Translations under genes and position numbers: made by a program | Shown here: positions 1-25,800 of the stretch, piece after piece | How positions within the stretch are numbered: position 1 is the stretch's first letter | Layout: each line of letters starts with the position of its first letter | NCBI GenBank assembly: GCA_050273025.1 | Contig: CP158635.1 | Span: forward strand, 10,106,001 to 10,170,000 | Direction of reading: 5' to 3' | Source: Cenococcum geophilum | Lineage: Eukaryota | DNA length: 64,000 nucleotides | Notes under the pieces: model-generated | Database searches by the model: none | What the model saw: the letters and a program-made list of their open reading frames with translations, nothing else | What the model was told of the DNA's origin: nothing

Positions 1-250
1 AAATGCATGTCGAAGATGGAAAGGGTGCTTGGAAGATTTTTGGACGCTGGTAGTCATCTAAGAAATCCGGAGAGGTAAGCATCAGCCCTAAGGCGTGCCC
101 TTATCTTGGTTACAGCCGCCTTGGTTTCGGTGGGCCGCCTGTGACGTCCGGGGGTGGCGCGAGTGTGGCCGTGATTACTATTTGCAAGGATCCGATACGC
201 TCGCCACCTAGGTAACCAATCGCTTAACGTCTGTCAGCTAGGGCTGCAGC

Positions 251-398
251 TACAAGGGCGACCTGAGCGGGCCACTCGCCCTCCCTGCAAGTTCTGGTGG
301 CATTATAGCCGTACACTTACTATTTCCCCAGGATATTACTATAATGTCATCAAAACTTGCAGGGAGGGCGAGTGGCCCGCTCAGGTTGCCCCCTTGTA
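251..398. mobile_element. Tc1/mariner-type MITE (TA-flanked, almost entirely inverted repeat)
   Basis: Left end TA-CAAGGGCGACCTGAGCGGGCCACTCGCCCTCCCTGCAAGTT. Right end is its reverse complement (AACTTGCAGGGAGGGCGAGTGGCCCGCTCAGGTTGCCCCCTTG-TA). Degenerate pairing continues inward. Confidence 0.8.
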
Positions 399-940
399 GT
401 AATCCTCAATAGAATAACTTTACCAAAATTAGGTAAATTCCAGCTGCCTTATGATTATTAAACCCATTTCGCTAGTGAGTTTACAATCTAAAATTTCATA
501 TCTTGGGCTAATAAGAAGAGTTAGCAAAAGAGATTATAGATTGTAGAAGGGAAATATTGTGAAGGGATTTAGAGGGTATATTGTTTGCGTTTCTATATTA
601 TCTTAGATTCCAAAGAAATAATATCCTACGACAATTCAGATTTCGAGTGATACATGCATATAGAACAATGATATAAAAAGACTTGATAAAAGGGAAATGT
701 AACTGGGCAAAGGAAAATGGTCATAAAAAGTTAGGAACTGCTGAGATGCAGTGATGATCGCGGACACATATCCTGACCTATCCTCGAACTCAAGCCTAGG
801 AAAGTGCTGTAGCTCGCGATCAGGCAAATATCAAAACCTCAGGTCCACCGAAGAAACCAGACAAAGCACAATACTCCCGACTAAAGCAAGTGCAGAGGTT
901 ACTTTTTCACGGGATCCACTCCCCAAATGGTATATGCTCC

Positions 941-2785
941 TCAAACCTCGGAACCTGCCAGCGGCGTTGCTGATGATGTATCTTCCACCATGGCAGTTGG
1001 CATTTCCATCGACATTTTTTCGGGGTTCATCATCCTTCGGCTGTATTTGCTCCTAGCTCGTAGCGTCGGCCCCCATTTGAACAGAACCCAGGGGATAGGC
1101 AGCAACGCAATTGAGATAAAGCCGAAGGTGCTCAGAGCCCAAGCGCCGGTCAGGTTAGTGAACACTAGGAATCATATCAGCATTATATCCTAGGCTGGGA
1201 GAAATCGGGATGAGAAAGGGGAAAGGAGGGGGATCTTACTTTGGAGAATCACGAGAGGAAGCACGCCAGCTAATAAGAGACGTATGGTCGCTGCTATAGT
1301 GAGGGCCGAGAGGGTTCCGGCTGGCGGGTACGCATCAAAGAGATACGCGACGAATGATATCTAGTGCCAAAAACATGAAATTAGGACTTTAAAACTTCAA
1401 GAAAACAGCATCTCGGATTGAATAAACTCACAGCCAAAGACAGACTGCCCCACACATAGAGCATCGTACCAAGTACAGGGCTAGGCCAGCGGATGGTTGG
1501 TTTGGCTGTCCAGCCAACCCAGAAGAGGGACGTGGTGATGAAGATACCGCCGAGCATTGCCGGGATAAGGCGATATTCGATAGCTAATGTTGCTCTCCTA
1601 TCCTTGGGAGTTCGGCGGTAAATTACCTGCTCAATGAGTATAGTCGTGATAGCTGCAAGAATCGATCCTACAACGGCAGCAATGAAAGCGAGCCCTGCTT
1701 GCTGGCCAGTGAATCCATAGACTGACTCGAGAACTACTGGAACGGTGATGAACCACTGAAAGACGACAGCGAAATTGAAACCGAGGTAGAGTGTGATGAG
1801 TATTACGACCGGTTCGGTGAGTAGCATGTCAATAGGGTTGAGAACAGTAATCTTGATCATCTGTGCAAGGGTCACTCCACTCTCGGCCGGCGGCTGATTA
1901 GGAGGAGCAAGGCCACGGCGCCTGTTTCTCCGTCTGGGAATTTCTCTTCCGTAAGTCTCAGGTATGCCAACGCCAAACATAAACACGACGAGGGTTATCA
2001 TCAATGTGACCCATTGTGTCCATCGCCATCCTTTCGCGGCAACAACAAAACCGCCAACTATAGGTCCTGCAAGAATAATAATAATTAGCATCTAGATAAA
2101 ATTTAGCCGGAACAAAAGCCATACCAACGGCCGCTCCCATGTACGAAGCCAACCCCAAAATAGAATAGTATGTGTTCGTCGTTTCGGCAGACCAGATATC
2201 AGCAAATGTGCCTTCGATGAGAACGAGGCAAGGACCACCAAAGAAACCAGCAAAGAACCGACAGACGGCAAGGCTTCCGAAATTTGTGGAGAGTCCAGCA
2301 CCTAGCGTAAAAAGAGCGAATAGGAAGAGGCTGGTTAGATATATTATCGAGCGACCAACCCGTTCGGCAACATGTGGTGTATAGATTGGCGCGAAGTGAA
2401 TTCCAAAGAGATATAAGGACATCCCAAGAATTGCGACAGAAGTCGAGAGGTTGAACTTTGTGGCCACCTCAGAGATTCCGGCAGTATACGATGTCAGTCC
2501 GAAAGCCCTGGAATGCTTGTCAGATTAAGTCCGTAATAAGAGGCTGGTATATACGCGCACAACAAACGCAAATGCCCACGACACGGCTGAGGCGTAAACC
2601 CGCCGGTATAATGGCCAGTTCATTGGATTGTCTGGATCAGTCGGAGAGAGCTGATGAGATAGTATGGTGGAAGTAGACAGGTGGTTGGGTATCTTTCCTT
2701 CCATCATGCCGTGCATCTGAGTGCTGGAAGTGATAGTTTCTCTCATTGAGTCCGCCATAGTAGGCATATGGCCGTCGTGTTCCAT
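941..2785 (-). CDS. MFS drug:H+ antiporter (DHA1 family), about 5 exons
   Basis: ORF pieces 2525-2785 (DPDNPMNWP), 1958-2467 (ERVGR motif A, RFFAGFFG), 1381-2091 (GPIVGGF..GWRW, PETY, EYRLIPAM) and 941-1165 (PWVLFKWGPTLRARSKY) join via short introns. Confidence 0.9.
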
Positions 2786-3971
2786 TATGCTGCGATCGAT
2801 GACGGTTGAGATATAATGATGAATAGAAACTGCTTGGGGCTAGGGTTGAAGAGTAGATAAATGGAAATTGTGTGTTGACTTATTGATAGCGACAGGAGAT
2901 TCGGAGTCTTATATACTAGAACTACACCCTAATGTAAACAGCACAGCTGCAGATCACTAAGAAGTGACAAATATGGTTCAAGAACAGCCTCTGATGATGA
3001 TGCGCCTCAATTCTAGCGCCCGCTGCATAGACTCGGTGCTAAAAGAATGCCGAATTACCTGCTTCGACAGCGATACAATTGCAGTTAGCCAATTAGAGCG
3101 AGGGCACATTTACAGTTTCTCGCAAAAAGCCTCTTCAGGGCCTGAATGATAGGTGGCATTGTATTGGATGATTCCATATCACCCTGGTGGTAAGACCTGC
3201 AGCTGCCCAGGAAATGGTTAAGGAATCCTCGAACAGTGCACACGGAATATCCAATGCTACATGGAGACTGCCAATGTTTCCAAACTAAGATGATAATCTT
3301 TGGGTGGGCTGAGTATGAAACGTGGAATATTTGGAGACCCTGGTTGATGATGGAATCAAAATGTACCCTAATTGGAGTGGCTAGGCCAGAAACGTTCGTC
3401 ACGGGAGTCAGCGGAGCCTCAGGTGCGAATCAGCAAACGGTGCAGCACAAGTTTGTAATTAGAGTAAGACGTAACAGATCCAGCAGGCAGGCTATAGTTG
3501 CTTGCAGCTATTTAAAATAATTGTCGATCTTTGGAAGCATGAAGCCGACACGGGTTGACGCGTGCATTCCGTTGGCTTCAGCTCCGTGCATCACCCAGCC
3601 GTCGGAGGGTAATTGCAAGATATGTCGACCAGTGGGTTCTAGACCATTAGCATACCTCAATTGCAGTTGTTCTCTTCACAGAAGCGCAATGAGCGGAATC
3701 ATAGTAGGTGGAAAGTTGGGATCGCAGCTAGGGAAGACCAAAGCTCGAGAGATCAGCCATCACAACAGCACAGAAGGTTGGGCCTGCGTTACCGATAGTG
3801 AAATAGCGCGGTTTAGAGTGTCAAGTCGCGCCAAGCAACGGGACAATCAAAACAAGGCTAGTGCCCGGCAACGAAAACGCATCACCAAACACCGCACCGC
3901 GCCCTTACACCAAATCTGTTTACCCATGCGTTATCCGAGCCCTCTCCCACAGCAATAACACCACCTGAACC

Positions 3972-6900
3972 ATGGAGGAACAGGCGGCTACCCTCCTTGC
4001 GACATTGAAAAAACCCTCCACAGCCGTCGATACCAAAATTGTTCTGTTCAACAACCTGAAGTCCAACATCAAGCACCTTAGAGTTCCTGAGGCCTCACAG
4101 GCTCCTATCTTCGAATGCATTAGGCTTGCAATCAGTGCTTCAACCTCCGCATCATTGGTCTCTACAGGCTTTTCAACCATTGGCCACCTTGTCAAGCGTT
4201 TGGTCCTACAGAATCAGACGACTATCCTCACCTCGCAGACCAACCGTCTCCTGCCCATTCTCCTTGATCGACTTGGCGACGCTAGGGAAAGCCACCGCAA
4301 TGCTGCCTCTCAAATTCTGGCCGACCTTTGGCCATTTGCTCACAATGAGGTGGAGGCTCTAATCAAGGATAATGCTATGAAGGGTACAAATGCGCGAGCA
4401 AAGGAAGTGTCAATGCAGTGGTTGGTGAATGTAATTAATAATTCGTCACAATTCATGTTGATGAGTTGAGCATGAGATTTGACACTTCTACAGATGAACA
4501 AGAGCGAGGGATTGCAATTCCGCAGCTTTGTTCCATTGATTGTCGCCAATCTGGAAGATTCCGATGGCGTCGTTAGAGAAACTGCAAAATCTGCGGTTGT
4601 GGAACTATTTCGGTATGTCTTAGCTTATAGTTTGTGCATATTGAGACAGGTGCTAACTTATTCTACAGCTCAGCACCAGAGCATGCAAAGGCCGACCTAA
4701 AGAAGCAGCTAGTCAATCATAATGTCAGAAAAACGATCGCATCGTACATAGTATCACAACTGAGCTGCTCGGCACCTCCAGAAACTGATATGAAAACTTC
4801 GACGACTTCCATTGCAACTACCTCGGCAGACTCTGTCAACCCGGATATGGGGTTCGCTGATAGCATGATGTCTGAAGCTCCTCCTCCCACAGAAGTTGTG
4901 CCAATGGATCCGATATATCTTCATACGCAGAGAGAGCTAGACGAGATATTCCGGGAGATGACACCACATTTTGAAGGGAGAGAGACAGAGCAGAATTGGC
5001 TAGCCCGTGATAAAAGTACTCTGAAACTAAGGCGGATCACCAAGGGCAATGCTCCTTCGGAGTTCCATGGCGCATTCATCTCTGGTGTTAAATCATTGCT
5101 GGATGGAATCCTGAAAGTAGCAAACTCTCTCCGTACGACGATGTCGACGAATGGGTGTCAATTGATTCAAGAACTTGCTAGAACCTTGGGATCTGCTATG
5201 GATCCGTGGACCGAAATCCTTCTGCAGAATTTTATCAAGATGTGTGCAGCAACGAAGAATATTGCAGCTCAGAACGGTAATACTACGGTGGACACGATAT
5301 TCTCTAATGTTTCATACAACAGCCGACTTTTGCAACACGTTTCTTTTGCATCTCAGGATAAAAATGTGCAACCTCGAATATTCTCCTCAGGGTGGCTCAA
5401 GACTCTTATTAAGAAACATAGATCGCACATTGAACACTCTGGAGGTCTGGAGCTTGTGGAAAAGACCCTTAAAAAAGGACTAGCTGATGCTAATCCCAAA
5501 GTCCGGGAAGGCTCAAGGGCGGCTTACTGGATGTTCGCTCAAGCCTGGCCCCAACGGGGCGAAGCGTACGTTTGCATAACGGATGTTTGTATAAATGCTA
5601 ATTAAGTTTCAGAATTATGGCCACTCTCGACCCGAAGTCCAAAGGACTCCTTGAAAAAGACTCTAATAATCCTAATGCTTCCTTGGCTTCATCCCAAATC
5701 AGCAGTGTGGGATCCATTTCAAAATCTGTAGGATCAGCTGGCCCTGCAGCAGCCCGATCTGCTTTGAAAGAGAAGATTGCAGAGCAGAAGAGAGCGAAAA
5801 TGGCTGCTGCTAGGAATCTACCGGAACGGCCCAGTTCGGCCCTGGCAACCTTTTCACCAGTAAAATCGCAATCCACAATATCGCTTAACACACGAATGCA
5901 ACCTCCTACATCTGGCACATCACACGCACCGCGACCACCCTCAGCAATGTCCACCGCAACGTCAGCGAGATCTGCTTTAGCGTCATCAAATGCGAATGGA
6001 TCTAGTTCCCTAATGTCAGCGCCCCTAAGGCCACCTCGCAGACCTGAACTAGCACGGCCTGCGACGGCTGATCCGTACGCGAGCAGGCGTAAAGCGAAGA
6101 ATGCTACACCTTCGATGACTCCAGAGAAAACCCCCGCTAGAGACACCGTTAAGAAATCGGTACCTCCAAAGAGCACTGTTCGATCCCGCACTGCTCCAGG
6201 ACAGAGCCCGAACGTAAGCCCCATTAGAAGCAAGTCTAGATTAGACCAAATGACGACCCACCGCAAAACACCTAGCTCGGAAAGTACACGAATTCCTACC
6301 CCAGCAGGTAGTCCTTCCAAGAACGAGGACTTGACTATGGTTATGCCTCTTGGAAAGCTGCCAAACCATAATGAACCAGGCCTGATGCCATTAAGGAGAA
6401 GGCCAGTAATTGATAAGACAGTTTCGGTCGACAGTGGAGTTGCCAATGTTACGGAGGATGATGGATTCACGATAGTTATACCAAACATGCAGCTGCCACA
6501 GCCATCCACACAACCGACGCAATGCAGCCCACCGAAATCTATATCTAGTCGACTAGATTTTGGAAGTCCTCGTACTATAGGGATCTCGGCGAATGGCATT
6601 TCTCTTGAAGCTACACATAGTCCTCGACTTAGATCACCAGACCATGCACTAGCGCAAGGCGGTGATGCTAGCGTAGTTCAGCCAGATGAAGTCCAGGTAT
6701 ACGAGGACCCGTTCGTTGGCGAGGAGCCTGATACCCTACCCACAGATTCTGAGAAACCAGTGTTGGAAGAGCTACCTCTCAATGAGAAGAACCTGGAGCG
6801 TCGACTAAGCGATGCTAGTGTCAGTAGTAACACTATTGTAGGTGACAGTGTAGCACGAACAGAAGAGCACTCAAGAAGCCATCGCAAAGCCACCGGCACT

Positions 6901-7773
6901 GGCAGCATCATAGCAGCCGATAGCAACGACGCCCCACCAATGCAAGACCGGACCGAAGTCCTCCGAAACCGCCGACTCCTTGCCAGTGGTATTGACCGCA
7001 TCCGCGCCAAGACACTCGATGCCCACGGTTTCCGCCGCCTACAAGACCTCGTCAAGGGCAACCAAGACATCTGGGGCACCGACGGCGAGCGGTTCGGCGA
7101 GCTCCTCCTCGCGCTCCTGGACTACCTCGAAGCACCCAACGAAGCCCTCAAAGTCCCCGCAGGCAAAGCACCGAACCTGAAAGTCCAAGTCCTGGCTACA
7201 ATCCGCGCGATGCTAGCACTCTACCGCAAAGAGACCGCTGTGTACTATTCCCGCGCTCTGTGCGCCATCCTTCAGACGAAATCGCACTACGACTGCACGT
7301 CGCACATCACGACGGACCTCGAGAACACGGCCGACGAGATTGTGCGCTACGGCCAAACGAGCGACTGTCTCAACGCGGTCCTCGACCTCGTCGAGTCCTC
7401 CGCGCCCGCCTTCGCCTCCTCCACCCCCACCACCCCGTCTCCGCCGCCCGCTGACGCCTCCGCCCCAGCCCCTGCGCCCGTCCCCAACCGCACCACGACG
7501 ATGAGCCTGCACGTGCTCGCGCAGCTGCTGCAGGTCGCGGCGACGAAAAACGCCGCCATTACGTCGGTGCAGACGCAGCGGCTCGGGCGTCTCGCGGTGA
7601 GGTTCCTCGACGATACGGATCCGGATGTGCGGAAGGCTGACCTGGATTTTTGCATCGCGCTGCATGAGCGCATCGGCGGCGAGAAGGATGTATTCTGGAA
7701 GGCGGTGGCGGGCGCGCGGGAGCAGCATCTGAATCTCATCACGTATTTCCTTGCGCGGAGGGGCAAGGCGTGA
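3972..7773 (+). CDS. STU1: CLASP-family microtubule-associated protein Stu1, about 4 exons
   Basis: N-terminal HEAT/TOG-like repeats; CLASP_N region (FEGRETEQNW..R..LRRITKGNAP, SLRTTMSTNGCQL); S/P/R-rich middle; C-terminal helical domain ending NLITYFL. Introns near 4431-4493, 4613-4673 and 5566-5612. Confidence 0.93.
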
Positions 7774-8665
7774 GAGAGGTGCTGGTTGCGGGAGCTGAGG
7801 GTTGGGGATTCGCTCGACTTTTTTGGGGGGTCTTTTACTGTTCTTGGGAGAGAGGACAGTGTTTTGTGAGGGATTTCTCCTCTGGTGTTTTGGGGTAGGC
7901 TTTGGGTGAGTGGGGTTTTGGAAGGTTTTTTTGCTGTTTCTTTTGGGATTCAAAAAGGGGTGTCTTCGACTTAGTCTTTGTAATTGTATAGCCTGGGTAG
8001 TGGATTTGATAGTTAATATGGCCTTTTTGTTCAGGGGTGCGGTGTTTACGTTGTGATGATGAGAGAGCAAAGGGATGAAGTGGAGGAGGGAGGCAGGGTA
8101 AGAGCGGAAGGTGAGTTGGTCTCTTTTGATTCAAGGGCGAGTCATGCGAATTTCTCCTAAAGACAAAAAGAGACGGGACCGTGCTGACGGAGTTTTTTTA
8201 CGTGCTAAAGAATGAATTCTAGGAAAATACCGTAGCAAGAGACAGGAAAGTAGAGTTGAAGGAACGAATCAGGTGTCACCAATATCCAGTCTGTGACTAT
8301 GAAAAGCCACACAGCTGACATCTTTGTCTAACATGTTCAAACATAAGAAATTACGAGATGCTAACATCCCGCTGGATCGAACATTACTCTAAGCAGAAAA
8401 ACCGTCCCAAGATTTGTTCAGCCATCGAACTCTAACTTACGACCTTATGGCCAGTTCCATTTTATCTTCCTAACACCAAAGCCTTCTCTAGACGCCTTTA
8501 TACGGGACAATGACGGCGTTTACAGTTCTTCTGTCAATCTCCTTGTAAACCGATTTGAGGTTTATTGGATGGGTCCTTAAGTGCATTGTCATGAGGTAAC
8601 AGTGTAGATGAGGGCGTTTGGTATGCGTGGAATAGTTAAGTAGCGTGTTCTGTGTCAAGAACTCA

Positions 8666-9269
8666 TTAATAAATTCCATCGACGACGGGAGGGGGTCGGT
8701 AGTTATTACTTGGTCCAGGGGTTCGAGGCACCGACGTGGATTCGGATTTCACTAGATTGACTGAAGTGGCTGATAAACCAGTGGCTGTGTTCTGATCTTG
8801 TTGTGGTCCGGTAGGACTTTGGAGCGTAAGATCACGAGCTGGTGATGGGATTGGAGGATCCCGGGTTGCGGCAAACTCATCGGAAGTGGTATGGGATGGT
8901 GGAGGTAGAGATGGAAGTATGTGAACCGGGAACTCATCTGAATACAATGAGAAGTGCTCTGGTAGACATGGGGAATGGTAATTTACTGTCAATTGAGATA
9001 GTATTTTCGGTTCCGTCCAAGCCAAGTGCATGTGATGGAGATTGAATACTTCTCCTATATTGAAGGTATGCGAGCACAAAGGAGCCCAACGCGATAAAAA
9101 TTCCTATGATACTGATTGTAATATTCTGAAGCGAGGACTGGTCGGTGTTAGTTAGGTTGAGACTTGGGTTTGGGCTTGTTCCATTGGCACGGCGAAGAAG
9201 AGAATGGGAAACCATGGCAGATGGAATTTGAGGGGGAATAAGTGATGGAAGGAAGTAAAGTGGCGCCAT
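8666..9269 (-). CDS. Small single-pass membrane protein, array paralog A (184 aa; exons 9269-8987 and 8937-8666)
   Basis: MAPLYF...QSSLQNITISIIGIFIALGSFVLAYLQYRR. A 49-nt phase-1 intron (GTAAAT...CAG) joins ORF 8934-9350 to ORF 8666-9079 (LPSLPPPSHTTSDEFAATRDPPIPS). Homologous to three nearby copies. Confidence 0.75.
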
Positions 9270-9801
9270 GTTCGTTCGGTTGAATTCTGGATCCAGAGAA
9301 GAGAAGGAAAATGTCGAGATATTGTCGAGATATATATCTGTAGGTATCAAAGCGAAAGTAACATGACGTGCCGACGGGGCTGTTTCACTTGATCCCTACA
9401 GGCTGGCGCAAATAATTTCTGAGGATCGACGACGCAGCTCCCACCTGAAAGGTTGCCCCTGGCTGTAGAGCCCGTACCTGCGCCAGCCCACGCTAAGAGG
9501 CCGTATCACTCAACGCCCACACATTTATTTGTCGTGTCTAACGTCTTGCCCTACCTGCCAGTCTGCAACTCGCTCGTACGGCCTTTACCGGCGACATGCT
9601 ATCACATCCCTATCGTACTCCTCGCCCCAGCGTGCGGCCAATGTCCTATGCCCTCTAGAGCAAGCCACGAAGCCGTCCAGCGCCCTAGCGCGGCCTTCCT
9701 GTGCACAGCCAAAACGCGCGAACTAGCCGTGCCTCCGTTGCTGCACTCGATATGGAGAGCAGCCAGTCACGGGCGTCCGTCGGCGGTGAATGTCGCGAGT
9801 C

Positions 9802-10111
9802 TACACCATCTCGTCAGTAAGGCCGTGTGCACCTGGGTGGGGTTTGTGGGTTCGGTTAAGGCACCAAGGCAGAAGTTATTAATTAGGCCTGCACCATTAA
9901 AACACAACCCAAATTAACTAAAAAAAGTCGTGAATATAATAGCGAAGACCTTACTTTAGCGCTATTAAATAGATAATAATAAAAAAGGTCTTTGTTGTGG
10001 ATATGTTGATGGCAATTCAAATTTGGTGGGTGTGGCAAGACCGCACTCACAAACTGCACCCCGGTGTGTAGACGTGGCTGCGCTAACCACCGGAATTGAC
10101 GAGATGGTGTA
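9802..10111. mobile_element. TA-flanked MITE with CACCA termini (Tc1/mariner-like)
   Basis: TIR TA-CACCATCTCGTCA ... TGACGAGATGGTG-TA with AT-rich interior. The right end recurs inverted at 19327-19372. Confidence 0.7.
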
Positions 10112-10691
10112 GAGAGAAACATCAGTTAGTTCTCTCGATCGAGGATCACGTGAAGTCCACATTTCCCACCTTCCCCTCGCCAAACGTAAAGTTGCCGAAA
10201 GCGTACCTGCACAGCACTCCCATTCGGCGTACTAGGGCTGGAGCAAATGGAGCCAGCCACACGAAAGCATCCAACCTGCTTTTGTGATCACTTCTGCTCC
10301 CCTCTAATGCAACGATACAAGAATCAATAGCTGTTAGATAAGAATAGGAATACATTAAGCAGCTTCTAAAATAACCGTCATCCAACCCAACCGAACTCAA
10401 CTCCAAGCAAAAAGAACCGTCACCATATTTGTTTGACCACCAAACTTCAGCGCATAACGCCGCTATTAGCCCCATTGTATCCTACCAACGTTTGCCTCCA
10501 ACACCTTAATTCAGGAAGACCACATCCTTTATTGTACTTGCTTAAGCGCCATATTCACCAAAGGGGCTCGTTAGGCGGGTCGTCTAGTGCAACATCAAGC
10601 GGCAATCTTGTAGGTGAGGGTGTTTGGTATGTGTGAGATGACTGGTAAGAAGGTGGTTGTGTAGACAGCCCTGTACTCGGAGGTCAATAAG

Positions 10692-11284
10692 TTATGCTAC
10701 GATGGAGGGGAAAGATATGTCCTTACCGAGTGGAGTTGCTGGCGAAGGTGAGCGCAGTTCGAGCTCTACGCAATCGGCTGAAGCTGTAGATGAAGGAGCA
10801 GCAATTCCACCATGGCCCTGAAGTGGATGGCTGGAAGGTTTAGGTGCGTGAGCACGTGTCTGGGATGAGATTGGAGAGTCCCCGGATACGGCAAGGCTAT
10901 CGGAAGTGGTACGGGCTGGAGGTGGAGGCGACAGTGCTTCGAACACAAATGGATCTGTACATGTTCAGAAATACTCGAGCGGAGATAGATAAGCATCAAT
11001 AGGCCTACCATCGAATGGTGCAGCATCTTGGTCTTCGTGGACATTAGGTACTCCTGATCTAGAGGCAACAGCTCTTCGGTATTGGAGATAGGCAACTATA
11101 AGGGTAGCTAAGGCAATACAGGTTGCTAAGACGCCAAATGTAATATTCTGGATTGAGGACTGGTTCACTTGATGAAGGTGGAATATAGAAATCGGGGCGC
11201 TATAAACCGTGCGGTACTTAAAGTGGTGGAGGGCTGCTAGAGAAAAAGACTCCCGAAAGGGAAAGATACTGGTATTGGTGCCAT
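10692..11284 (-). pseudogene. Array paralog B, probably frameshifted near the 5' end (intron 11008-10955)
   Basis: QSSIQNITFGVLATCIALATLIVAYLQYRR; 54-nt phase-1 intron; exon 2 reads DPFVFEALSPPPPARTTSDSLAVSGDSPISS. The MAP.. ATG at 11284 hits TAG at 11239-11237 unless one base is added in the T run at 11243-11247. Confidence 0.65.
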
Positions 11285-12516
11285 GCCAATAGTAAAATAT
11301 GAATATGGAGAGAGCGATCAGGGTGTTGAAGGAATGAATGAAAAATCAAATTTAATGAGTCTTGCGAGCCTTTAATAAAATCCTTCGATGAGCCACTTGG
11401 GCAAGAAACAGGGATCGCCGAACATACGCTGACAAGACTACGATCTTTTGTGGGCTGCAGTATGCTCAGAGCTGCAGTCTGTGGTGGTAAATCGTCCGAT
11501 GACAGGGCAGGTACCCTTCCGGGGATTAGGCGAGCACGGCAGTGAGGGTAATTGTGTTTCGGCTTGAGAAATCTAACCGAATTATTAGAATGGGGGGTGG
11601 TGAGCACGATAGTGTAGGCCTTCCTCCTATAAGATGAGGTTAAACGCCTAAGAAATGTTATGCACGATTCGTCTTCATCTAGGCTAACGCTTTGCGTCGC
11701 TAGCGGCATGCAGCATGGAAACTTTATGACGATACAAGGGGGCTGCATGTGCACACTGCTTATTCTTTTTGCCACCCCCAACTGCCCTGAATACTACTCC
11801 ATTGCCTCATCTGTGGCACGGGTAACCTCGACAAACAGCTGTAGCCGGATTCCATGGCATTCCACCAATCCTGTCAGCTCTTGTTTACATCGTTGATTCA
11901 ACCTACTTTGTGGAGCGCTTCGCAAATTACTACTATCTTGCTCAACCCCAGCATCAGTAGGAGTACGAGAGGTCAAACTTAAAACTCTCTGCCGAGGATC
12001 AAAGCGCTGCTGTAAAATAGTCTTGTCAGTTCATTAAATCTGCCTTTCACGGCCCCAAACGACAAACACGCTTCTGGTGGTAGCCATGCACTCGCCCAAC
12101 TCCCCAGACTGGCTAGCCTGCCCAGCGCCAGCAGAAGGAGGATGATGTGCGTTGATGCGTTTCCTTCTGTAGGCCGCGCAGAGGCAGGGGTTCGCTCCCA
12201 ATTGCCCTTTATGATTTGCTGCACGTCGACTTAGGGTGATCATTCACACCAACACACGCAACTACACACATATCAGTGGCTGTTCTGGCTGTTCTTACCC
12301 ACATCGCTGCCAGGCCACGGGCTTGATATACCCTCCCAGGCCCGCTCGCTGCCACTGTGTAATGTCGTCCTGTGCCTCGAGCTGTTGACGGCTTCCAATC
12401 TCCTCTCGTCCCTTCGTCCCTGCGTCGTCCAGGCCTCAACTGCCCAAGCTCCAAGCAACCGTCAAATTTCTCTCCCGCGCGCGACATCCGCCACCGCCGG
12501 TCAGCACCGCCCACCC

Positions 12517-12646
12517 TAACCCTCTCACTCCAACCCTCTTACTCCAACCCTCTTACTCCAACCCTCTTACTCCAACCCTCTTACTCCAACTCTCTTACTC
12601 CAACCCTCTTACTCCAACCCTCCTACTCCAACCCTCTTGCTTCAAC
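12517..12646 (+). repeat. 14-bp minisatellite (ACTCCAACCCTCTT) x about 9
   Basis: Direct tandem copies visible with few substitutions. Confidence 0.9.
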
Positions 12647-13471
12647 GGGTCTTCATCTACCTAAACCAGCAGTACCCCGGTCGGGTAGCCAATTAATTCT
12701 CCAACGCATCTCAAATCTGCCTTGCCGAAAACTATGATGTGCGCCGGGCTCGTCGCCTTGAACTTACCACTCCCTGCTGGTTCGGCTCCGCGCCAATACA
12801 AGTCCCACCCAACGCGCTGTCAGATCACTAAAGAAATCCTTCGAGCCTAGCATTCCTTCGCTTCTCCGATTAGTCTATTTTCCTCGCATAAAGCAAATCG
12901 TATTTTCAGCCTCAGCCTACATAAGGTCGTTCCCAGCCTTACAACCTTTGATTTTAGCCTTGTATGTTCAGAACTATATGTGTGGGAAGATAGCTCATAC
13001 TCATTTCTTTTCGAGTTAGAATACAGAAAAATAATCACGTCTCGGTCCTAACCTTGCTGTTCCAAACACTACGAGGTCTCAAAGTAGCCCCCGCACAAGT
13101 AGATCCAATCCAGATGTTCGACGTAGAGCAGACAACTCGGTCACTCTAAGGACTAGCTGTATAGCATCGACTGTACAAAAGCACCGCTAGATCTATCCAA
13201 ACCTAGCACCCATTTTATCATATCATACCAGCACCAATACTCTCCTCGAATACCACCCTAAAATGAAGACAGTAGTCATTATACTCATTCAAGAATCCTG
13301 TCCGCCAGTATTGTCTTCATTAAAGCAAGAAGTATTTATGTGTGGAGTGTCGTGAAATTAATTCAAGGCAGTGGGTGGCAAAGTTGGTGGAGACAATGTA
13401 AGTTCCATCTGTACTCTAACGGTTGTAGTGGTGTATAGAGAAGCATCGTTTCTATCATGTTCCTGTGTTAG

Positions 13472-14218
13472 TTAGAAAGGGGCTTCAGATGGACGTCTAG
13501 AGTTATCAGAGGTGATTGGAGGGTTCTCGACCTCGACAGACGCATAGACAGTCAGGGCTTCCATCAGTATTGAATATTGAACGTTCAATATCAATATCAA
13601 TACGACATGTTCAATACTGAAAGATATTGAATATCGAAAGAGAATATATAAAAGTATATAAAATAGCTAGTTTTATGGCTTCTGCTATAATAAGTATTAG
13701 AAATATATACTCTGTTATAAGGAGTAGGGTATAATAAGGTGTATAAAGGCTATAGGACAATATAAGGTGGCTATTGTGGATGTAAGGTATCCGTTTTAGG
13801 CGTACGTTTATGCTAAGGCCTTGATTATGCACGGTTCGCAGCCTATATTTGTATGGGGGCTTGGCAAAAATTCAATATTCAATATCAATATCAATACGGC
13901 CTAATACTGATATTGAATATTGATGGAAGTCCTGTCGGCAGTCGTTAGAGGTGGTGGAGGTGCATGAAGAGGAACTATATTCTCGTCTTGATGCGTAAGG
14001 CCCATTTTTCTGCACTGAAGATACGCGACGACGAACGAGGCCAGGGCGAGACAGACGGTCAATATACCCAGAGTCCGGTCCCGGATTGAAGGCGGGTTGG
14101 CATGGGTTGAGTTAACTAAGGATCTGATGCCAAGTTTATGGGAACAGCAGAAAGCATAGCGGCAGACAAAATTTGAGGTTGGAGAAGACAGATACGCCTC
14201 GGACAAGACAGGTGCCAT
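13472..14218 (-). pseudogene. Array paralog C, intronless, interrupted by a MITE
   Basis: MAPVLS...PPSIRDRTLGILTVCLALASFVVAYLQCRK...PLHAPPPPLTTAD. Removing element 13553-13934 plus one TSD restores ASVEVENPPITSDNSRRPSEAPF*, matching the tails of A and B. Confidence 0.75.
13553..13934. mobile_element. hAT-like MITE inserted in paralog C
   Basis: TIR CAGG(G/A)CTTCCATCA(G/A)TATT(G/C)AATAT; subterminal TCAATA/TATTGA arrays; degenerate 8-bp TSD TAGACAGT / TCGGCAGT; AT-rich RIP-like interior. Confidence 0.8.
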
Positions 14219-14709
14219 TATTTAATGCGTTGAATTGTAAACGCAAAGCAAGAAGGAGTAGAGTATGAATATTTGAAAGACAAAAATCACGGCTCACTAG
14301 AAACTTATATACTGGAGAGTCCGCTTATCTAGCGGGAAAAAGATCATTAGCATGCTGAATTACACACCGTGCGAGAGGGCACCAAGCAATGGTACCCCGT
14401 TGACAGCGGCTGGATTGACCGAAGCAGACGAAGCAGACAAAGCAGCAGCATTAACTAGCAGGTGTCTCGGTTTCATCCGCAGCCCTTACTCGATAACCGC
14501 ATTGCTCGCTGCGACGACGAGCACGGTATTATTTTTCTTTGGAGCTTAGAAATTTGGCTGCGCAGGGGGACTCGGCAGTCTAGCGTTCGTGTCGGCCGCT
14601 CCTATCAGATGCGGGATCATCGTAATCGCGTCCTAACGGCCGGATTGCTTGCTTTTTCCCTTCCGACCTCTGCAGCCGCCACGAGCATACCCCGTATACT
14701 CTGTGGAGG

Positions 14710-15846
14710 TTATCTCATGAATCAGACGCTCCGCAGAAGATTTGTTCCGTGACATGGGATAACGCATAGACCCTCTTCTGGACCAATTAGAACTGCGCAC
14801 TAATTTCAGCCCCCTGCGCACCCCTGTTACCTAACAAATTCTTCTGCGGAGCGTCTGAGAGCTTATGGGCGTTGCTTTGGTGAGAATTGAATGTTTTAAA
14901 AATTAAATTTTGTGTATTTCTACGAGCGACGTCCTAACCCTAAGAGTTATTATATATTTTATTAATGCAATAGATTCTTTAGGTAATCATATCTATATAT
15001 TTATAAATTATAACCCCCTACTAAGAATACTAGGGGGCGAGATACATCGTCGTAGAACGTAAGTTAATTTTAAATTTGAATATTTATAGATTTTAACTAA
15101 ACCCGACCAATAACCTATATCTAACTTCTTATAAAATAGAGCTATAATATCGCCGTAATATAGAGGCGATAGAGAAGACAAAGGGCTTTTAGCTCGTACT
15201 ATTTTAGAGATAATTAGACATAGAGAAGTATATAAGGTATGGCAGTGAGGCAGTAGGGCAAGATTGCGATTAAAACCGACTAACTACCTATATCTAACTT
15301 CTCGTAGAATAGAGCTACGATATCGCCATAATATAGAGCCGATAGAGAAGAAAAAGGGCTTTTAGCTTATAGTATTTTAGAGATAATTAGACGTAGAGAA
15401 GTATATAAGGTATGGTAGTAAGGCAAGATTGCGACCGACGAGACGAAAATGCGACCGACGAAAATACGACCGACGAAAATACGACCGACGAAAATACGAC
15501 CAACGAAAATGTGACCAACGAAGATACAACTAACTGCCTATATCTAATATTTTATATAATAGATAGAGAAACTAAAGAGCTCCTACCTTATAGTATTTTT
15601 ATAATAACTAGACGTTATAAAAGGGTTAAGATACGCGTTATAGTAGAAGAGTTATCGCCTAACAAGAAACATTGAGTTCTCATATAAAGGGCGCCCATAA
15701 GCTCTCAGACCCTCGGGGAGAAATTCCTCTTAGTGTAATCTAATTGGTCCAGGAGTCCACAGGACTAGGGTAAGGTTCACAAGCGTAGCACTAGTCCTTC
15801 CACGTCGTAGCGCAATTTCTCCCCGGGGGTCTGATTTATGAGATAA
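14710..15846. mobile_element. Non-autonomous DNA transposon with perfect 8-bp TSD and nested inverted repeats
   Basis: TSD TGTGGAGG at 14702-14709 and 15847-15854. TIR TTATCTCAT(G/A)AATCAGAC. Inner IR GTCTGAGAGCTTATGGGCG at about 14853 and 15710. AT-rich core with an ~150-bp tandem duplication and 15-bp GACCGACGAAAATAC repeats. Confidence 0.85.
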
Positions 15847-17253
15847 TGTGGAGGCGCTTTCTTGACGTCGATGTCTGCTTGCCCTGCCGCCAGGCAAGAG
15901 CATGCACTCCGCACGCTAACCACAACCCAGTCCACCATGCCGCCTGAGACAACGTAGGCTCTTTCAACACGCACCAGCCGTAAGGCAACAGAACCCCGCA
16001 ACTGTTGCCTTGGTAAGGGAAAGCCAAGATCCTGATCGGGAATAGTCAAAGAATCACATCTGTCAAGCAAAAACACACAAGTTGACTTTTAATATATTTG
16101 CCGTTGATAAATTCTCTTCCCATTCCGTAGTTGGCCATATCGTATTTCTCCGCCCAAGCGTGAGGCTCTTCTTAATAAAGAGCCAGGAGCGGCGAAGGGT
16201 AAAGTGGCCTCCACAACTTGCCAGCTATCTGTATCTCAAGCCATTCCCGCGGTATTAAGAGTGAATATACGGGTGCGTATATGGGTGCAGTTAATAGTGA
16301 CAACTGGGAAGCATCTGGATCAAAACAGAACAGATGACACGCATCAAAGCTCTACCCTTATTTTACCCAGCATCTGTTTAAATAAAATCAAACCTCTACG
16401 GCTGCGTTAACAACGACGAGATGAAAGGTTTTGTTATACACACTTTTTTTGTGTTAAACAATAATAGATTCCCTTTATTTCCAACAAGCCAGCCTCTCTC
16501 CGGATCCCGGAAGGCTGAAGCTGCTATACACATTGTGAGCTATGCTCAACTTACCAGAATTGCAAGTACCGTCCTAAGGCAGGCGAAACGAAATGGTCTT
16601 CTGTCAGATAGTGGTGAGATAGGTAACATAGCCATAGAGTCCAAAGGTTCGATAATTATGCATTATAATATCGGAAAAGAAAGGTGGTAAGTATAAGTGA
16701 GGCCCGAGTATGGTGGTGGTGAAATAGTTCTGGGGAAGGAGAATGAGTGAATTGGGTTCTTTGATTATGTAGGTGGAGGCTGAAGGTATGGTTTCGAGTG
16801 GAGCATGAAATGAGACGGTTATTGTGACGCTATCCAGGATTTCCAAATTTCATTTGCCCAGTATAAGTACTAAAACTTACAGAATTGGGAAACGGAAACA
16901 TTTATCCCCAAAGCTGTTTAGGCAGAGAACCAATAGATCACGCCGCCAAACCCATTTTAACTGCCAATGCCATCGTCCCTACCCTTACACACACGTGAAG
17001 AAAAAAGTTTCTGTTCCTTATTGGAGGAGACTTGGCGGGTATGAGCGCGACATCCCCATTGAATTGCGATGTGATATCGTGAAATGATTGTGAATGGTCG
17101 ATAGATGACTGTACAGCCACAGTTGGAAAGATGATAAGTAGGGAGTACTGTATTAAGAGGGTTAGCAAGGTATTATCTTTATTCTATGACAAGAATTGGG
17201 TGCAATACTGAGTGGTGGTGTCGTTGTCATCATGAACGACGCAGGTTGAGGCT

Positions 17254-17654
17254 TTAGGGATCAACGGTAGCGGGAGGTAGAGCTGAGTCATTAGAAGTGG
17301 CACTGTTTGGCCGAAATTCATCGAACGGAAGTTCATCTACGCATATTTAGAAATACTCTAGCTGATACTGATAAACGTCGAGATACCATTTGAAGTAATG
17401 ACGGATCTTTCTTGCTCCACAGTGACCGCGGGATGTTCCCTAGAAGCACTTCTCTTGTACTGAAGATATGCAACTACAAGTGTAGCTAGAGCAATGAAAA
17501 TTGCCAAAACTCCGAGTGTGATGTTCTGTATGGAGGACGGGTCGAGACGGTTTACTGTATAGGTCAAGCTGGCTCTAATAGTGCGACGAGTAACATAATT
17601 CGCCATTGGACATGGTGCTTGACAAGCGAGACCAGGCATTTTGACTGGTGGCAT
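17254..17654 (-). CDS. Array paralog D (116 aa; exons 17654-17387 and 17336-17254)
   Basis: DPSSIQNITLGVLAIFIALATLVVAYLQYKR. The 50-nt phase-1 intron's 3' part (GAGTATTTCTAAATATGCGTAG) resembles that of paralog B (GAGTATTTCTGAACATGTACAG). Confidence 0.7.
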
Positions 17655-18364
17655 ATTGGATCATTTAGCGCGCAGAGGCAAAGATAAAATAATTTGAATG
17701 TTAGAACGACGAACAAAATGCACAACCCATTGGGCTTTGTAGGCTATTAATGCTGTCATCTCTTTTGATCTGTTGTCGTTGTTTAATATTGCGCGCCCAC
17801 CGCTGCATCTTAGAGTGTGGGGGCACCGGCGACACGTCTCCCGGTCCCAGGGCACACGGCTTAGCCAATGGGGAGGGGAGGCTGGAATGGAGCGCGACGA
17901 TAGGCGCAGGGTTGCTTCCTTCTGTACGCCTCTACAATAACTCCCCGTCGCCAAGCAGGCCGCTCCCTACCGTCAGCATGCCCATCTGCCATCACGCTGC
18001 CAGCATCACCAGCAGCAGCAGCTAACCTGGGGCCATGCTCTAGCCGTAAAAGCCCATCTAGATTTATTGATGTCTCCGTTCCTTTGCCCTTTTCCTTGCA
18101 GCCACCCCCGTTGCTGGTTGCTTGTTCGCAGGCGCCGTCGCTCTGGCGCCAGCAGCCTGGACGAACCTTAAACGAACCCATGAGCCATCAGCAATCATCG
18201 AGCAAGCAATCATCAGGTCCATCCGAGCTCTCGGACACACCAAGGATGTATGGGGAAGGCCGCATTTTCTCACAAGAACGGGGGAGCACCTAGCGAAGCG
18301 GCACCGCACAAGCAACGTTGGGCTTAGCGGGCGGGTTGTCCGGGAGCTGCGAGGAGACGCGGGC

Positions 18365-18609
18365 CGCGGGTGACAAAAAAGTAAGACTGCGAACGAGTTG
18401 CGGTGTTTCTATGCACGCAGCACCACGGCCTTGAGTTGTAGAAAAGTCTAAAACTTAGAGCATAATATTTCGAAGCATCTAAATATTTTAGCGTCTTTAT
18501 ATTTTTTATAGAGGGCCTTATTAGCGCTGCATATTACCGTAGATTTGGTGCACTTTTATTATTGCTCGCTTGTTGAGTGCTCGTAGTCTCACTTTTTTTG
18601 CCACCCGCG
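18365..18609. mobile_element. MITE with about 30-bp TIRs
   Basis: CGCGGGTGACAAAAAAGTAAGACTGCGA versus reverse complement of TCGTAGTCTCACTTTTTTTGCCACCCGCG; AT-rich interior. Confidence 0.7.
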
Positions 18610-19326
18610 TGCTCGGGCCACTCTTTCCAGATCTTGAGGCTGCGACTGCGCCTCACGACAGAACCTCAGCCCTCTACGATAAGCCTATCACAAGCGATCT
18701 AATAGAACGTCTCGACCTAATCTAGACTTTCCTAGGAATCCCCAAAGCACGCGCACCAAGTTGCACGATGCGCGCGCCCCTACGCGCCCTTACGCACCTA
18801 CGCAGGGGCTTTTGTTATCTTGGCCTGCATGGTCGAGCGAGTAGTTTATTCGCTCCTTCCGCAGCCTGTCATTCATGGGGCTGTGATCCGTGACCAGAGG
18901 CTTTGAGGCTCTGCTCGAAAGCGAGATGGCGCAGCCGTCAACTCAGCTGAGAAGCCCTTGTGGAATTTACCGGGGCGGCGGAGCGATTAGAGCAGATTCT
19001 GATGCGAAACTGCTTTCGGGTGCCGGCAAGGGCTGGGCAGAAACGTGCCGCTCTGTCAATGCTGCTGCCAACCTGCCACTTTTGCAGCAGACAAAGCCGC
19101 CGGGTTTCAAGGCTGAAGCTGAAGTGACGCCGGGCTAAATGGCTTGTAAGCAGAGGCCCCAGAGAGCGAATCAGCAAATCGACGGGGGGCCAAAGCGCTG
19201 AGTCACTTGGAGGCGCTGTAGCAGAGACAACGAGGGGGGAAGGCAGTCGTCATGACCGTTTCTTCACCGGCCTTCCAAGCAGTATACTTTTGGATTTCCC
19301 CTTCCCTGTGGCACTCCAAGCCCACC

Positions 19327-21376: not shown

Positions 21377-22429
21377 TCAACCCCTTCGCGGCCCCTCATC
21401 CGACCCCTCTACCCCCCTAACCTCCTCCACCCCCATCTCATGCACCACCCGCTCATCCCCCCACATCTCCTGCGGTGGCGCCTGATATCGATAAACCACC
21501 CCCGCATCCCCCTCCACACGCTCCTTCTCCGCCCCCAGCTCCACCGGCGCCCTCTCCGCGCTCCTCCCTTTCCTCCACCACCACCACAACACCACAAGCC
21601 CCGCCACCGCCGCTATCCCCCCAACAGTCGCCCCAACCCCGATCCCGGCCTTCGCACCCGTGCTGAGCCCGCTCGCTGCTGCGGAAGCAGGAGAGCTGGT
21701 GGTTGGAGAGGAGGGGGAGGAGGAGGGCGCGGCGGTGCAAGCGGCGGCGTTGTGTGCGTTCAGCGAAACGAGGTAGCTTTGCGCGGGGGTGGGGAGCGCG
21801 GTGTACCATGCCGGCGTCGTGTATTGCGGGCCGAAAGGGGTGTTGTGCAGGAAGCATTGGGCGGCGGGGTCGGTGATGGCGGAGGAGGGGACGCCGGTTG
21901 AGATTATGGCGAGGATGGAATTTGAATCGGCGGACTCGGTTGGGGTGGCTGAGGTGGAGCGGGAGGTGGCGGAGGAGGAGCTGACGACGGGAACGGTGAT
22001 GTTTACGTAGTGGCTTTGCCAGAGGTTGTTGTTGTTTGTGTTGTCGTAGAGGTCGAGGTAGAAGGCCGGGGTGTCGGTGAGGTTGAGGCCGCCGATTGAG
22101 ACGGTCCAGTTGTAGGCTTGCACGTAGGGTGTTAGATCTCCTGTACGAGCGAAGATGGTCAGTGAATCGATCTTCTATCTGGATATATAGAACTAGGCTG
22201 AGAATGGCAGATCTAGGTAGATGTGGCAATTGACCAACTCACCTGGATTCGTGATGACAGCGTAAGTGTTACGAGCACCAGGCGCATCCTGCCATGCGAT
22301 TAGAGACGGTTTCTTAATACTCGCTGACCAGCGTAGCTCTTGCACTGAGCCTAGCTTCCAGACTTGGTTCGCAGAATAGACACCAGACGTGCCCATGGGC
22401 GGTGGGTTAACCCATGGGTTTGTAGACAT
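21377..22429 (-). CDS. Ser/Thr-rich single-pass cell-surface membrane protein (Mid2/Wsc-like architecture)
   Basis: NPPP..G...N.V exon, intron about 22221-22117, S/T-rich stalk, GLSTGAKAGIGVGATVGG TM followed by WWWWRK and a VEL/HEM tail. The 5' start is uncertain: a signal-peptide-like frame upstream is out of phase. Confidence 0.75.
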
Positions 22430-22893
22430 TCTGACAAGACAGAAGAAATAGAAACACTACAGTAGAGAAGAGAAACAAACAGGCTTTCACGCCAAACGGT
22501 GGTTGACATTTCAATGGAAGACAAGAGACCAGGATTATTAAAGAACTTCGCCACCGACGGGGACAGTGGGTTCCTTATCCCATGCTTAGGACCGGGAGAT
22601 GCAAGAACTGTGGTCCTTTGAAGCCTAATTTCCTATCAAGCACTTGTTGGCAAGGCTGAGGCTACATGCAGACAATAGGTCGTTTGGGACGTTGTGCATG
22701 GGTAGTGCGGCCGCTAGGGTGAATGAGGCTACTTGAAGGACTAGAGCCCTTAATAATACTCCAGAATTGCGTGGAGGGAAGTATTTGATCATGGATTCCG
22801 AGCGTTCGTGCATGTCTTTTCGACTCTATCCGGCCGCTTTTCAGCCCTCAAATACCGAAAAAATGGGTCGATGATAATCATACACCGCCTATC

Positions 22894-25800
22894 TATTATT
22901 CACACGCTTGCGGAGAAGAGGATTAATTAATCTGATTGGTGGGTACGGGCTCAAAGGCATCAATTAAGAATGGGTATATTCGCAAGGCCATTTGCAGGGG
23001 ATTGCCCTGCCTTGACTAAACGTGATGCCTATGGACCCGTGCGCAAGCATATCACTACAGTATCTATTTACAAAGCCCAAAATATACAACCAAAGAAAAA
23101 GGTGTAGGTAGGAGGGAAAGCAAGCAAGCAAGGCTTAATTTTATAAATGTTAATAATATTAGTATTACTAAGATATAGGGGTGCTGCTGTAGTGCTTGCT
23201 TAGCTATATAGATATATCCATTTATTATTTACACACTTGCGGAAAAGAGGATTAATTAATTTAATTGGTGGGTATAGGCTTAAAGGCATTAATTAAAAAT
23301 GGGTATATTCGCAAGGCTATTTATAGGGGATTACCCTACCTTAACTAAACGTGATACCTATAGACCTAGAAGCGTAGCGCCCGTACTATATAAGGTAGAG
23401 AAGGGGGAAGAAAAATAAAAAATAAAAAAGGGGGGGAAAGGAGAGATTTAAGTTAATATATTAGAGTGCCAAAATAGGCACTCCTGTACGCTATTGTGCC
23501 TAAATACCTTCGCCTATTATATCTAGAGCGAGTAATAATAAGAACGGTATTAGCGTTCTATATTAGAAGTTTATACTTAGCCAGAATAGGTCTTTTAGGA
23601 ATAATAAATAGTAAAGCTAGAACGCTTATAAGGACCACCAGCCTAGTTACTATATTTAGCCGTCCGTAAAACCGTTGTCTTAAGTATATTAAGTAGTACC
23701 TTTCTAAAACAAGTGTCCGTTATAAAGCTTAGAGTAAAAGCCGAGAGCGGCGACTTTATACTTTAGCTTATTCCTAACCGCGTAGCTTATAAAGGCCGAT
23801 CTCTTAAAGTAAAAGAGAGGGGCGTTTCTGGATTAGGGGTTATTTTTAAATAGGTATTTTATAGCTTAAACTACGCATTTAGGTTGCCCTAAAGCGGCAA
23901 TTATAATTAAAACTCCTTAGTAATTAACGTCCGTTTTACTACGCTTTAGACGTAATATTATATAGTCCTCTACTAGCGTTATATTATTTCTAGTACATTT
24001 TATAGTAGAGAAGGCGTGGCTATCTTTCTAAGCCTTAGTATAGGTAATCTTACCTAAATAAAGGAATCCCACAAAGGCTGTAGTAACGGCGGCGTTAAAG
24101 TTAAGATCCTTAACGGATTAGGCATTTAGGGTGACTAATTAGGTAAGAATGTCTTTAGTAATTAGCAATCTTTTAGCCATAGTAGAGGGATTTATAGATA
24201 TTGCACTATTTAAAATCCTCTTAATAATAGGATTATTAAAGACAGAGGTATTATAATTAGCGTTAATATAGTGGGATCAAATTGCGGAGACATAGGCTCT
24301 AACTATAGTAGGCTTAATACGGCTTATTCCTGGACTAGTATTACTAAAGATCTGTTAGGTAATCCATTCTCCCAAGTAGTAGAGGGGCGCTAGGTACTTT
24401 ACCACTCTATAAAGGTCGCAGTAGCCCTCCTAACTCTTAATTACGGGACGGTATAAATCTCTTATTCTATTGGAGAGGTGTAAGAGTATATATATTAGGT
24501 CCCGCCGCGCTTGCGACAAGTTCGCAAGCACTCTCAGTCTTTTTGGCCGTATGGCGACGTGGAGGCGGGCCACGTTACAATTGTGCTTGCGAACTTACTG
24601 GGGCCAGGTGTCGTGGGTTCAATCCCCATCGGTTACTTCGCTCTGGTACAGTCTAACGCGCATCCGTGCGATGAGGCGTTGGTGGAGATTCCGATCGCTT
24701 ATGTTACTGGGGACTAACTAATATGGTGATACTCTTGGCGTTTGATCCCTGTGGAGGCCCGAACGGGCGCACAGAGGAATCCCTGCGAGCGCTCGGGGAC
24801 GAGCGCGTAGAGGAGAGGGCAATTGTAAGAGTATATATATTAGGTCCCGCCGCGCTTGCGACAAGTTCGCAAGCACTCTCAGTCTTTTTAGCCGTATGGC
24901 GACGTGGAGGCGGGCCACGTTACAAGAGGCTGTGCTATAATAGTTGGCCGAAGCATTCTAAGGGGGCTTTTACCTTAATCCAGAAATTAGGTAGGGGGTC
25001 TTTAAGAGGGACCAGGTCTCCTATTTCAGCGTTAGATTAAATATAATAAAGAAGCGTATAGTAATGGTAAATTAGAAGTATCCTAATGCGGGTATAGTAA
25101 TAACACCCTATCGCAATTAAAATAAGATAGAGTATTAGCTAGCCCATTTTCTGTAAAGGAAACCTACTCCGCATAGAGCGTAATATCGTAAGCTGCGGCT
25201 AGTTAGAGGATCTTATAGAGCGGGTAATTACCCAGTCCTTTTACCACCATATTCTAGAATCCTAAGAGTGCTACTATATTATCCGTATAAATATAAACTG
25301 AGCTATACTCCTACCGCGTTGCCTAGAGCTAAAATAAGGTTGTAATCGCTTAGACCTCCTACTTATTAATTAGGGTAAGGCGGTATTCTACATTAAGGTA
25401 GCAGCTTAAAGAATTATCTTAGGGTAGAGATACCGAATAGGGCGGCTATATTATCCCTTAAGAATCCTTAAGGAAGAAGAAGGCCCCGTAACTAAGAATC
25501 CTAGATATATTTAAAAAGAGATAGAATTATTTTTAATCTATATTATTAAAGAAGAGGATACTATTTAAAAGGGTAAGAGTATCCCTTTACTATAATAAGT
25601 CTTAGCAAAGTTTAGCTATTAGCCGTTAGCAAAGATAACTACTTACCTTTATAAAAGTAGAGATAAACTCCTAAATAGAGCGGTTATATAAATGCCTAAG
25701 CCTAATTACTTAGGCGCTCTAAGCGAGTCTACTAGCTAGTTTTTAACTCTAAACTAGCGTTAGGGATCTACTACTTAACGCTTTATTAATCTCCTTAATT

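Follow-up and report, generated by a model that had tools for sequence, protein, structure and literature searches.

Several described membrane proteins share a simple plan in which one helix crosses the membrane with the N-terminus outside (N-out). The KCNE/MinK subunits and the yeast proteolipids Pmp1 and Pmp2 are signal-anchored in this orientation and carry basic residues after the helix, and in KCNE glycosylation sequons stand before it. Rsp5 adaptors of the Rcr1/Rcr2 type and LAT are likewise single-pass and N-out, with a disordered cytoplasmic tail. A different kind of variable locus is found in het-c and pin-c, which are defined by balancing selection and trans-species polymorphism (PMC2988816). 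Here we set against these systems an array of four paralogous membrane microprotein genes, A to D, in a 64-kb stretch of the filamentous ascomycete Cenococcum geophilum (C1:10106001-10170000 of a 178-Mb genome in seven contigs; hereafter the window, whose positions are used throughout). A CLASP/STU1 gene (CLASP_N Pfam match) adjoins the array tail to tail. We read A to D as ancient tandem duplicates belonging to a membrane microprotein family of the Pezizomycotina that is uncurated, and the reading of its role that we favour, at a probability of roughly 0.42, is that its members would be helix-centred accessory microproteins acting on a larger membrane protein.

A family of microproteins with a common helix core

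A motif scan of the 64-kb window in six frames gave only four matches, all on the minus strand, and these are the cores of A (9140-9051), B (11162-11073), C (~14095-14006) and D (17540-17451), which align to A at 32-36% identity. The family profile matches the four cores at E values from 7e-21 to 6e-13, while every non-member segment scanned stays at 0.23 or above. MAP or MPP starts were found at 9269 (A), 11284 (B, out of frame), 14218 (C) and 17654 (D), and A, B and D have a GT..AG phase-1 intron at the homologous position. An earlier note, made from the letters of this DNA, had described both the paralogous cores and these starts, the frame of B included, and on these points it was right, as it was in calling the genes unannotated and free of known domains: none of seven window segments reaches any Pfam family cut-off. 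What it missed is that the family reaches beyond the array, with two further copies, E and F, elsewhere in the genome.

A profile search of the kind that the same note had proposed was made with the six paralogs and found 112 matches at E ≤ 0.001 among 1.84 billion representatives; no characterised family was matched. The alignment of 106 rows used below consists of 105 of these matches and P0003. Two repeat proteins (P0048, P0068) and the weakest match (P0115) were left out, together with four near-duplicates of kept rows or of window B (P0006, P0009, P0014, P0093). The shared core reads S-x-I-Q-x-I-x-F-G-[VI]-x5-A-x-[AG]-x4-[AG]-Y-L-[QH]-x-R, with F in 95, G in 83, A in 91 and Q or H in all 106 members. 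Eight relatives have an organism name (seven of thirty looked up and one more), and all are Pezizomycotina: Lepidopterella, Glonium (two), Clohesyomyces, Massariosphaeria, Cercospora, Vermiconidia and Pseudogymnoascus, genera placed in the Dothideomycetes and Leotiomycetes. All eight are annotated as hypothetical or uncharacterised, and the closest are those of Glonium and Lepidopterella.

No Pfam family was matched by more than four of the 106 members at E ≤ 0.01, none of 13 members matched NCBIfam, and a PDB sequence search returned no match (best E 0.21). The JGI label 'YciS (DUF1049)' on P0027 is without support in Pfam and was rejected, and PetG (PF02529), which remained below its cut-off (18.3 versus 23.7 bits; PDB E 0.21), was treated as convergence. 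The nearest clusters in the ESM Atlas consist of ascomycete hypotheticals without names (0.87-0.90, low recognition), which we take as a lead only, and the helix region gave no usable named match. As for longer or fused homologs, there are four close ones of 197-208 amino acids and none at 362-2000 amino acids, which is weak evidence. A 45-column tree (quick search, SH-aLRT 85) groups A, C, D/E and F with their own orthologs without resolving their joint origin. Our literature searches, with most subscription papers outside their coverage, returned no description of the family.

Predicted topology and motifs of the flanks

Each member has one hydrophobic helix, and lysine and arginine are more frequent after than before it in 105 of the 106. 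The AlphaFold2 model of P0003 has a single helix at residues 36-76, with a block of pLDDT 87-97 at residues 41-70 and low confidence elsewhere. Sequons before the helix number 114 versus 69 in shuffled sequences, and those after it 21 versus 25; a signal-peptide-like start was found in seven of the 106 members by a crude hydrophobicity rule. The tripeptide DxE, an ER (endoplasmic reticulum) export code (PMC2172508), is present in 63 of 106 tails versus 19 after shuffling, and [DE]xE[ML] in 32 versus 5. Charge, sequons, DxE and starts, all of them features outside the search profile, support both real homology and the N-out topology. The prediction of single-pass N-out/C-in proteins (type III or type I), mostly signal-anchored and with disordered flanks, is therefore supported, as had been proposed before from the window paralogs. 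The NIT site, which had been cited for this orientation, is weak evidence for it: it is present in 19 of the 106 members and abuts the start of the predicted helix. A sequon in that position is too close to the membrane for use.

Other tail motifs occur at chance among the 106 members (PPxY/LPxY 2 versus 1.1, YxxPhi 28 versus 25, NPF 1 versus 0.3), as do juxtamembrane cysteines (4 versus 5.4), and dileucine is not enriched in the tails. Tail length ranges from a few residues to more than 100. A, B and C have a short tail motif in common, and the homologs of A and B share a stretch of the third exon. A homodimer prediction for the helix region scored 0.03 versus a mark of 0.32; it was made without controls or an alignment and is counted neither way.

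Constraint on the core and turnover of the array

For comparison between close relatives we used four metagenome loci (L044-L047), the confirmed ones among 127 pattern matches; for selection, changes were counted in A, B and D with three alleles per gene, and the counts are small. In the core of 30 residues, the replacement value (pN) is 0.075 and the synonymous value (pS) 0.154, a ratio of 0.49. The core pN is below that of the flanks (0.14-0.15; p=0.005) and below the non-coding value (0.173; p=0.0003), and pN/pS is 1.15 in the N-terminus and 0.89 in the tail. Between D and E the core ratio is 0.27. The N-terminal ratios of A and B are near 2, an excess that is not significant (A+B p=0.14) and equals the non-coding rate, and positive selection was not found with three alleles per gene. 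Between close relatives, constraint is limited to the helix core, and the N-terminus and tail drift about neutrally.

Eleven alleles of A to D could be read at the DNA level: six look intact, three keep the helix but have lesions in the tail, and two lose the helix. B carries lesions in all three of its alleles and C in both of its two, and D is intact in three of three. The array is also rearranged in the metagenome loci: L045 has B in inverted orientation, and in L046 an inverted C sits next to D. In the present genome B is null-like, C is truncated and D is intact, which corrects the earlier view of an array of four genes. The best reading of the array is tandem expansion under birth-and-death.

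Transcription and structure of the paralogs

The RNA evidence comes from four of 24 listed runs, placed on window 7800-19000. Assemblies X2 and X4 have nearly identical numbers and may represent one data set, and the X21 reads mostly differ from the window by 5-10%. RNA contigs drop rare forms, and the splice joints reported are those listed; 16 more are not among them. The contigs of X1, X2 and X4 are identical to the window throughout A and B and in the part of D that was listed. At ~200-260 for A and B and 40-60 for D, depth is far above the 1-3 of 16028-16775, which marks the signal as RNA and not DNA; X21 has no depth over B.

Paralog D (17254-17654, minus strand, 116 amino acids) has orthologs in L046 and L047. 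Its intron 1 (17337-17386, 50 nt) is spliced, with the joint 17336/17387 present in X1, X2 and X4 and also in 10 raw X21 reads with seven start points in sense-RNA orientation. Intron 2 (17148-17208, 61 nt) lies in the 3' untranslated region and is joined at 17147/17209 in X1, X2 and X4. D, L046, L047 and E all retain an out-of-frame ATG, which in the window is at 17664, 10 bases upstream of the D start.

Paralog B is transcribed from the minus strand in three exons (10137-11624), with intron 1 (10955-11008, 54 nt) spliced at 10954/11009 in X1, X2 and X4 and intron 2 (10671-10726, 56 nt) at 10669/10726 (cut +1). The second introns of B and D were missing from the gene models of the earlier note, which were to that extent incomplete. 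The ATG of B at 11284 opens only a 15-residue peptide, with the helix core in another frame, and ahead of the helix the spliced transcript has no in-frame ATG, only near-cognate codons in frame upstream. In L044 and L045 one additional base near the B start lets the frame continue into the helix, and P0003 and P0004 also read into it. The frameshift is not an assembly error, since the window version is the one in the RNA contigs, and B is a pseudogene allele that is transcribed, unless translation begins at a non-AUG codon.

Paralog A (8666-9269, minus strand) starts at the ATG at 9269, with exon 1 to 8987 and exon 2 from 8937, and has orthologs in L044 and L045 and homologs in P0001 and P0002. 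Its product would have 184 residues with intron 1 (8938-8986, 49 nt, GT..AG, phase 1) removed, 174 with the candidate intron 8709-8650 also removed, and 111 unspliced. Of the phase-1 introns that had been predicted, the sites exist in all three genes and the B and D junctions are in the RNA, whereas the A junction 8937/8987 is not among the joints listed for X1, X2 and X4. A gap-free contig of 1580 nt spans 8221-9800 in these three assemblies, and the spliced form of A intron 1 is seen only in the homolog P0002. The stretch over A is transcribed from both sides, by a plus-strand extension of STU1 and by minus-strand joints that enter at 9800, and a spliced form of A could therefore have been collapsed. 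We regard the splicing of A in this genome as doubtful. The candidate intron 2 (8650-8709, minus strand) is at the position homologous to B intron 2; relatives have an indel or a stop inside it, and P0002 reads on in frame beyond it.

Within 7773-9800 the spliced 3' extension of STU1 heads towards A on the opposite strand (plus-strand intron 8111-8222 by its splice sites, joint 8108/8221), and probably overlaps it, in convergent overlapping transcription. A dispersed element of ~238 bp (9829-10067, ~30 copies listed) supplies both donor sites of the minus-strand joints into the A leader, which is long and contains four upstream ATGs.

Paralog C (13901-14218, minus strand) has a genomic open reading frame (ORF) of 105 amino acids without intron 1, which runs into a 382-bp non-autonomous element with terminal inverted repeats (13553-13934) inserted in the C tail. 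The tail motif is hence in two pieces, the second half being stranded in a 3' remnant at 13472-13543 (minus strand) that matches P0011 and P0012. These two are uninterrupted homologs of C; P0011 (160 amino acids) has the motif in one piece, and the C core differs from it at conserved positions. A tail motif shared by A, B and C had been described in the earlier note, where the element that breaks the C copy went unmentioned. The element has at least 63 matches in the genome, is presumably hAT-like (a hAT-type miniature inverted-repeat transposable element) and shows an 8-bp target duplication at four of seven other copies examined, with a degenerate duplication at C. It is separate from the gene family itself. 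A plus-strand RNA contig of 947 nt (~12590-13597), which has an intron at 12962-13019, starts near a short tandem repeat (~12500-12630) and runs antisense over the C tail remnant into the inserted element.

Unlinked copies, neighbouring genes and repeats

The unlinked copies both look intact: E, on C3, is 69% identical to D, and F lies on C1. D and E end before the second intron. The six copies in 178 Mb come from protein searches of the genome and are a lower bound; at the DNA level, nothing dispersed through it matches the coding parts of A or B. Weak genome matches at L006, L007, L017 and L036-L038 were rejected as family members. A HET-domain gene (PF06985, E 4e-31) lies at L039:2734-4771 on C3, ~5 kb upstream of E.

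The upstream neighbour of D (21380-22740, minus strand) encodes a Ser/Thr-rich single-pass membrane protein with no Pfam family above cut-off, which we take to be Mid2/Wsc-like. It was duplicated with D to C3 (~76% DNA identity) in the same order and orientation, and the spacer between the two genes does not align with the C3 copy. Three close copies of this neighbour exist, at 21380-22740, C3:19557542-19558256 and C7:14181703-14182500, and stops or introns interrupt the matches on C3 and C7.

Elsewhere in the window, self-complementary or nested inverted repeats at 250-399 and 51418-52018 are probably small transposons, a dispersed repeat at 14709-15435 has a 90% match on C4, and a long AT-rich block at 23500-28500 has a dinucleotide skew of the RIP (repeat-induced point mutation) type. 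An ORF just upstream of the window (L043:4562-5107) has a motif that we assume to be Fic/Doc-like.

Discussion

We favour an accessory subunit centred on its helix over an adaptor working through its tail because the helix is constrained and the flanks are variable and dispensable. The working part would be the helix of ~30 residues, including its polar caps (S-x-I-Q-x-I-x-F-G ... A-Y-L-[QH]-x-R) and small residues that recur at intervals of seven to form a stripe. It may pack against the membrane-embedded domain of a partner, located in the plasma membrane or the secretory pathway, and so tune the trafficking or activity of that partner in the manner of FXYD or KCNE subunits. The N-terminus, rich in Ser and Thr and bearing sequons, would be a luminal spacer, and the tail a mostly disordered one that in many members may carry a DxE-type ER-export signal, with binding to the larger protein following ER export. 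Copies that are redundant or only conditionally useful would allow the array to gain and lose members.

Several points weigh against this reading. Any hydrophobic anchor would be constrained somewhat, the partner is putative, and the microproteins are known from genes and RNA alone. Conservation of the core among the matches is partly built in by the search, and the motif patterns were picked after viewing the alignment. DxE, although present in the spliced tail of A, is not conserved across the window paralogs. The purifying selection on the core that the earlier note had looked to is borne out in comparison with the flanks and not with synonymous sites alone, where the difference is not significant (15 versus 11 changes, p=0.06), and the constraint is weaker than in STU1, used as a control (pN/pS 0.11 and 0.19). 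Lesions in the metagenome contigs, moreover, may be assembly errors.

Much of the variation could also be that of an array relaxed in this lineage, in which redundant copies drift to pseudogenes, the family stays functional elsewhere and the core keeps the weak constraint of an anchor. Roughly 70 codons in every 100 change at a near-neutral rate, B and C have independent lesions (three of three and two of two alleles), the C core has changed at conserved positions, the A intron is not seen spliced, and B and C are each rearranged in one metagenome locus. Set against this are D, intact in all three alleles, the intact E and F, the splicing kept in B and D, the core less variable than its flanks and the low D versus E core ratio, and we consider such relaxation possible though not likely. 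That the helix anchors a disordered tail which docks signalling or ubiquitin-ligase proteins, a form of the adaptor-like role that the earlier note had suggested, would suit the topology, the disorder, the tail motif of A, B and C, the third-exon stretch of the A and B homologs and the enrichment of the acidic-hydrophobic [DE]xE[ML]. It appears unlikely from the pN/pS of the tail, its lesions in several alleles, its widely varying length, docking motifs at chance, and the ends of D and E before the second intron. A likeness to recognition or defence families had been drawn as well, and in a het-like system polymorphic members would act with HET-domain or NLR effectors. The tandem array with its rearrangement and loss alleles, the HET-domain gene near E and the N-terminal ratios of A and B are consistent with it, yet the replacement excess is not significant, the few alleles (three per gene) form no divergent classes, the HET gene is near one unlinked copy only, a scan of the long ORFs of the window, not exhaustive, noticed no other, and no fused form was found (weak evidence). 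Balancing selection and trans-species polymorphism of the het-c/pin-c type are not seen here either, and we hold the idea to be rather improbable.

The duplication of D together with its neighbour, with order and orientation kept and a spacer that does not align, might point to a two-gene sensor module of the microprotein and the Ser/Thr-rich single-pass protein. We think this very unlikely: one segmental duplication explains the pairing, 10 kb to each side of the closer neighbour copy, that on C7, hold no family member, the C4 relative has none in the 14 kb covered, and F has no such neighbour among the long ORFs. Hardly any weight falls on an artefact of transposon fragments or chance hydrophobic ORFs. 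Several small dispersed repeats do lie in the interval, and hydrophobic helices draw weak profile matches, but this reading is largely refuted by the spliced transcripts with conserved intron position and phase, by profile relatives in named fungi and by the missing dispersed copies of A and B, only six family copies having been found in 178 Mb. High copy number, element termini and transposase homology, the marks of a transposon-encoded ORF, are not seen in the family, the element in C being separate.

If the helix-centred reading holds, the family directs study to the helix and not to the tail, and if pumps, channels or sensors are tuned, its members would be fungal counterparts of FXYD/KCNE-type subunits. 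A bolder and rather doubtful extension is that the helices encode specificity, each paralog picking its own partner (a transporter, a sensor or a death effector), in which case gain, loss and rearrangement of array members might let strains of this root-associated fungus differ in their control of membrane transport or of non-self responses. Apart from function, which is putative, the locus clearly exemplifies birth-and-death in a small tandem array, and the profile defines a widespread uncurated family of ascomycete membrane microproteins whose genes are split, overlooked or called hypothetical in annotation.

Among the known systems, het-c and pin-c resemble the family in being variable loci and in that one unlinked copy (E) is near a HET-domain gene; they differ in that neither balancing nor positive selection was seen in the few alleles of the family and no HET partner was noticed at the main array. 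In contrast to the fungal Rcr1/Rcr2 adaptors and to animal adaptors such as LAT, the family has no enrichment of PY, tyrosine or palmitoylation motifs, and its tail is unconstrained. KCNE/MinK and Pmp1/Pmp2 are alike in topology, with no sequence match in Pfam or PDB. PetG, subunit 5 of cytochrome b6f, is a weak look-alike at the helix end and is also a one-helix accessory subunit. FXYD proteins differ in that the present family is fungal, lacks the FXYD motif and any Pfam match, and has a partner that is only proposed. They are nevertheless alike in plan (PMC7953255): these regulators of the Na+/K+-ATPase are small and N-out, have one helix with variable flanks, and are proposed to function through the helix and juxtamembrane residues.

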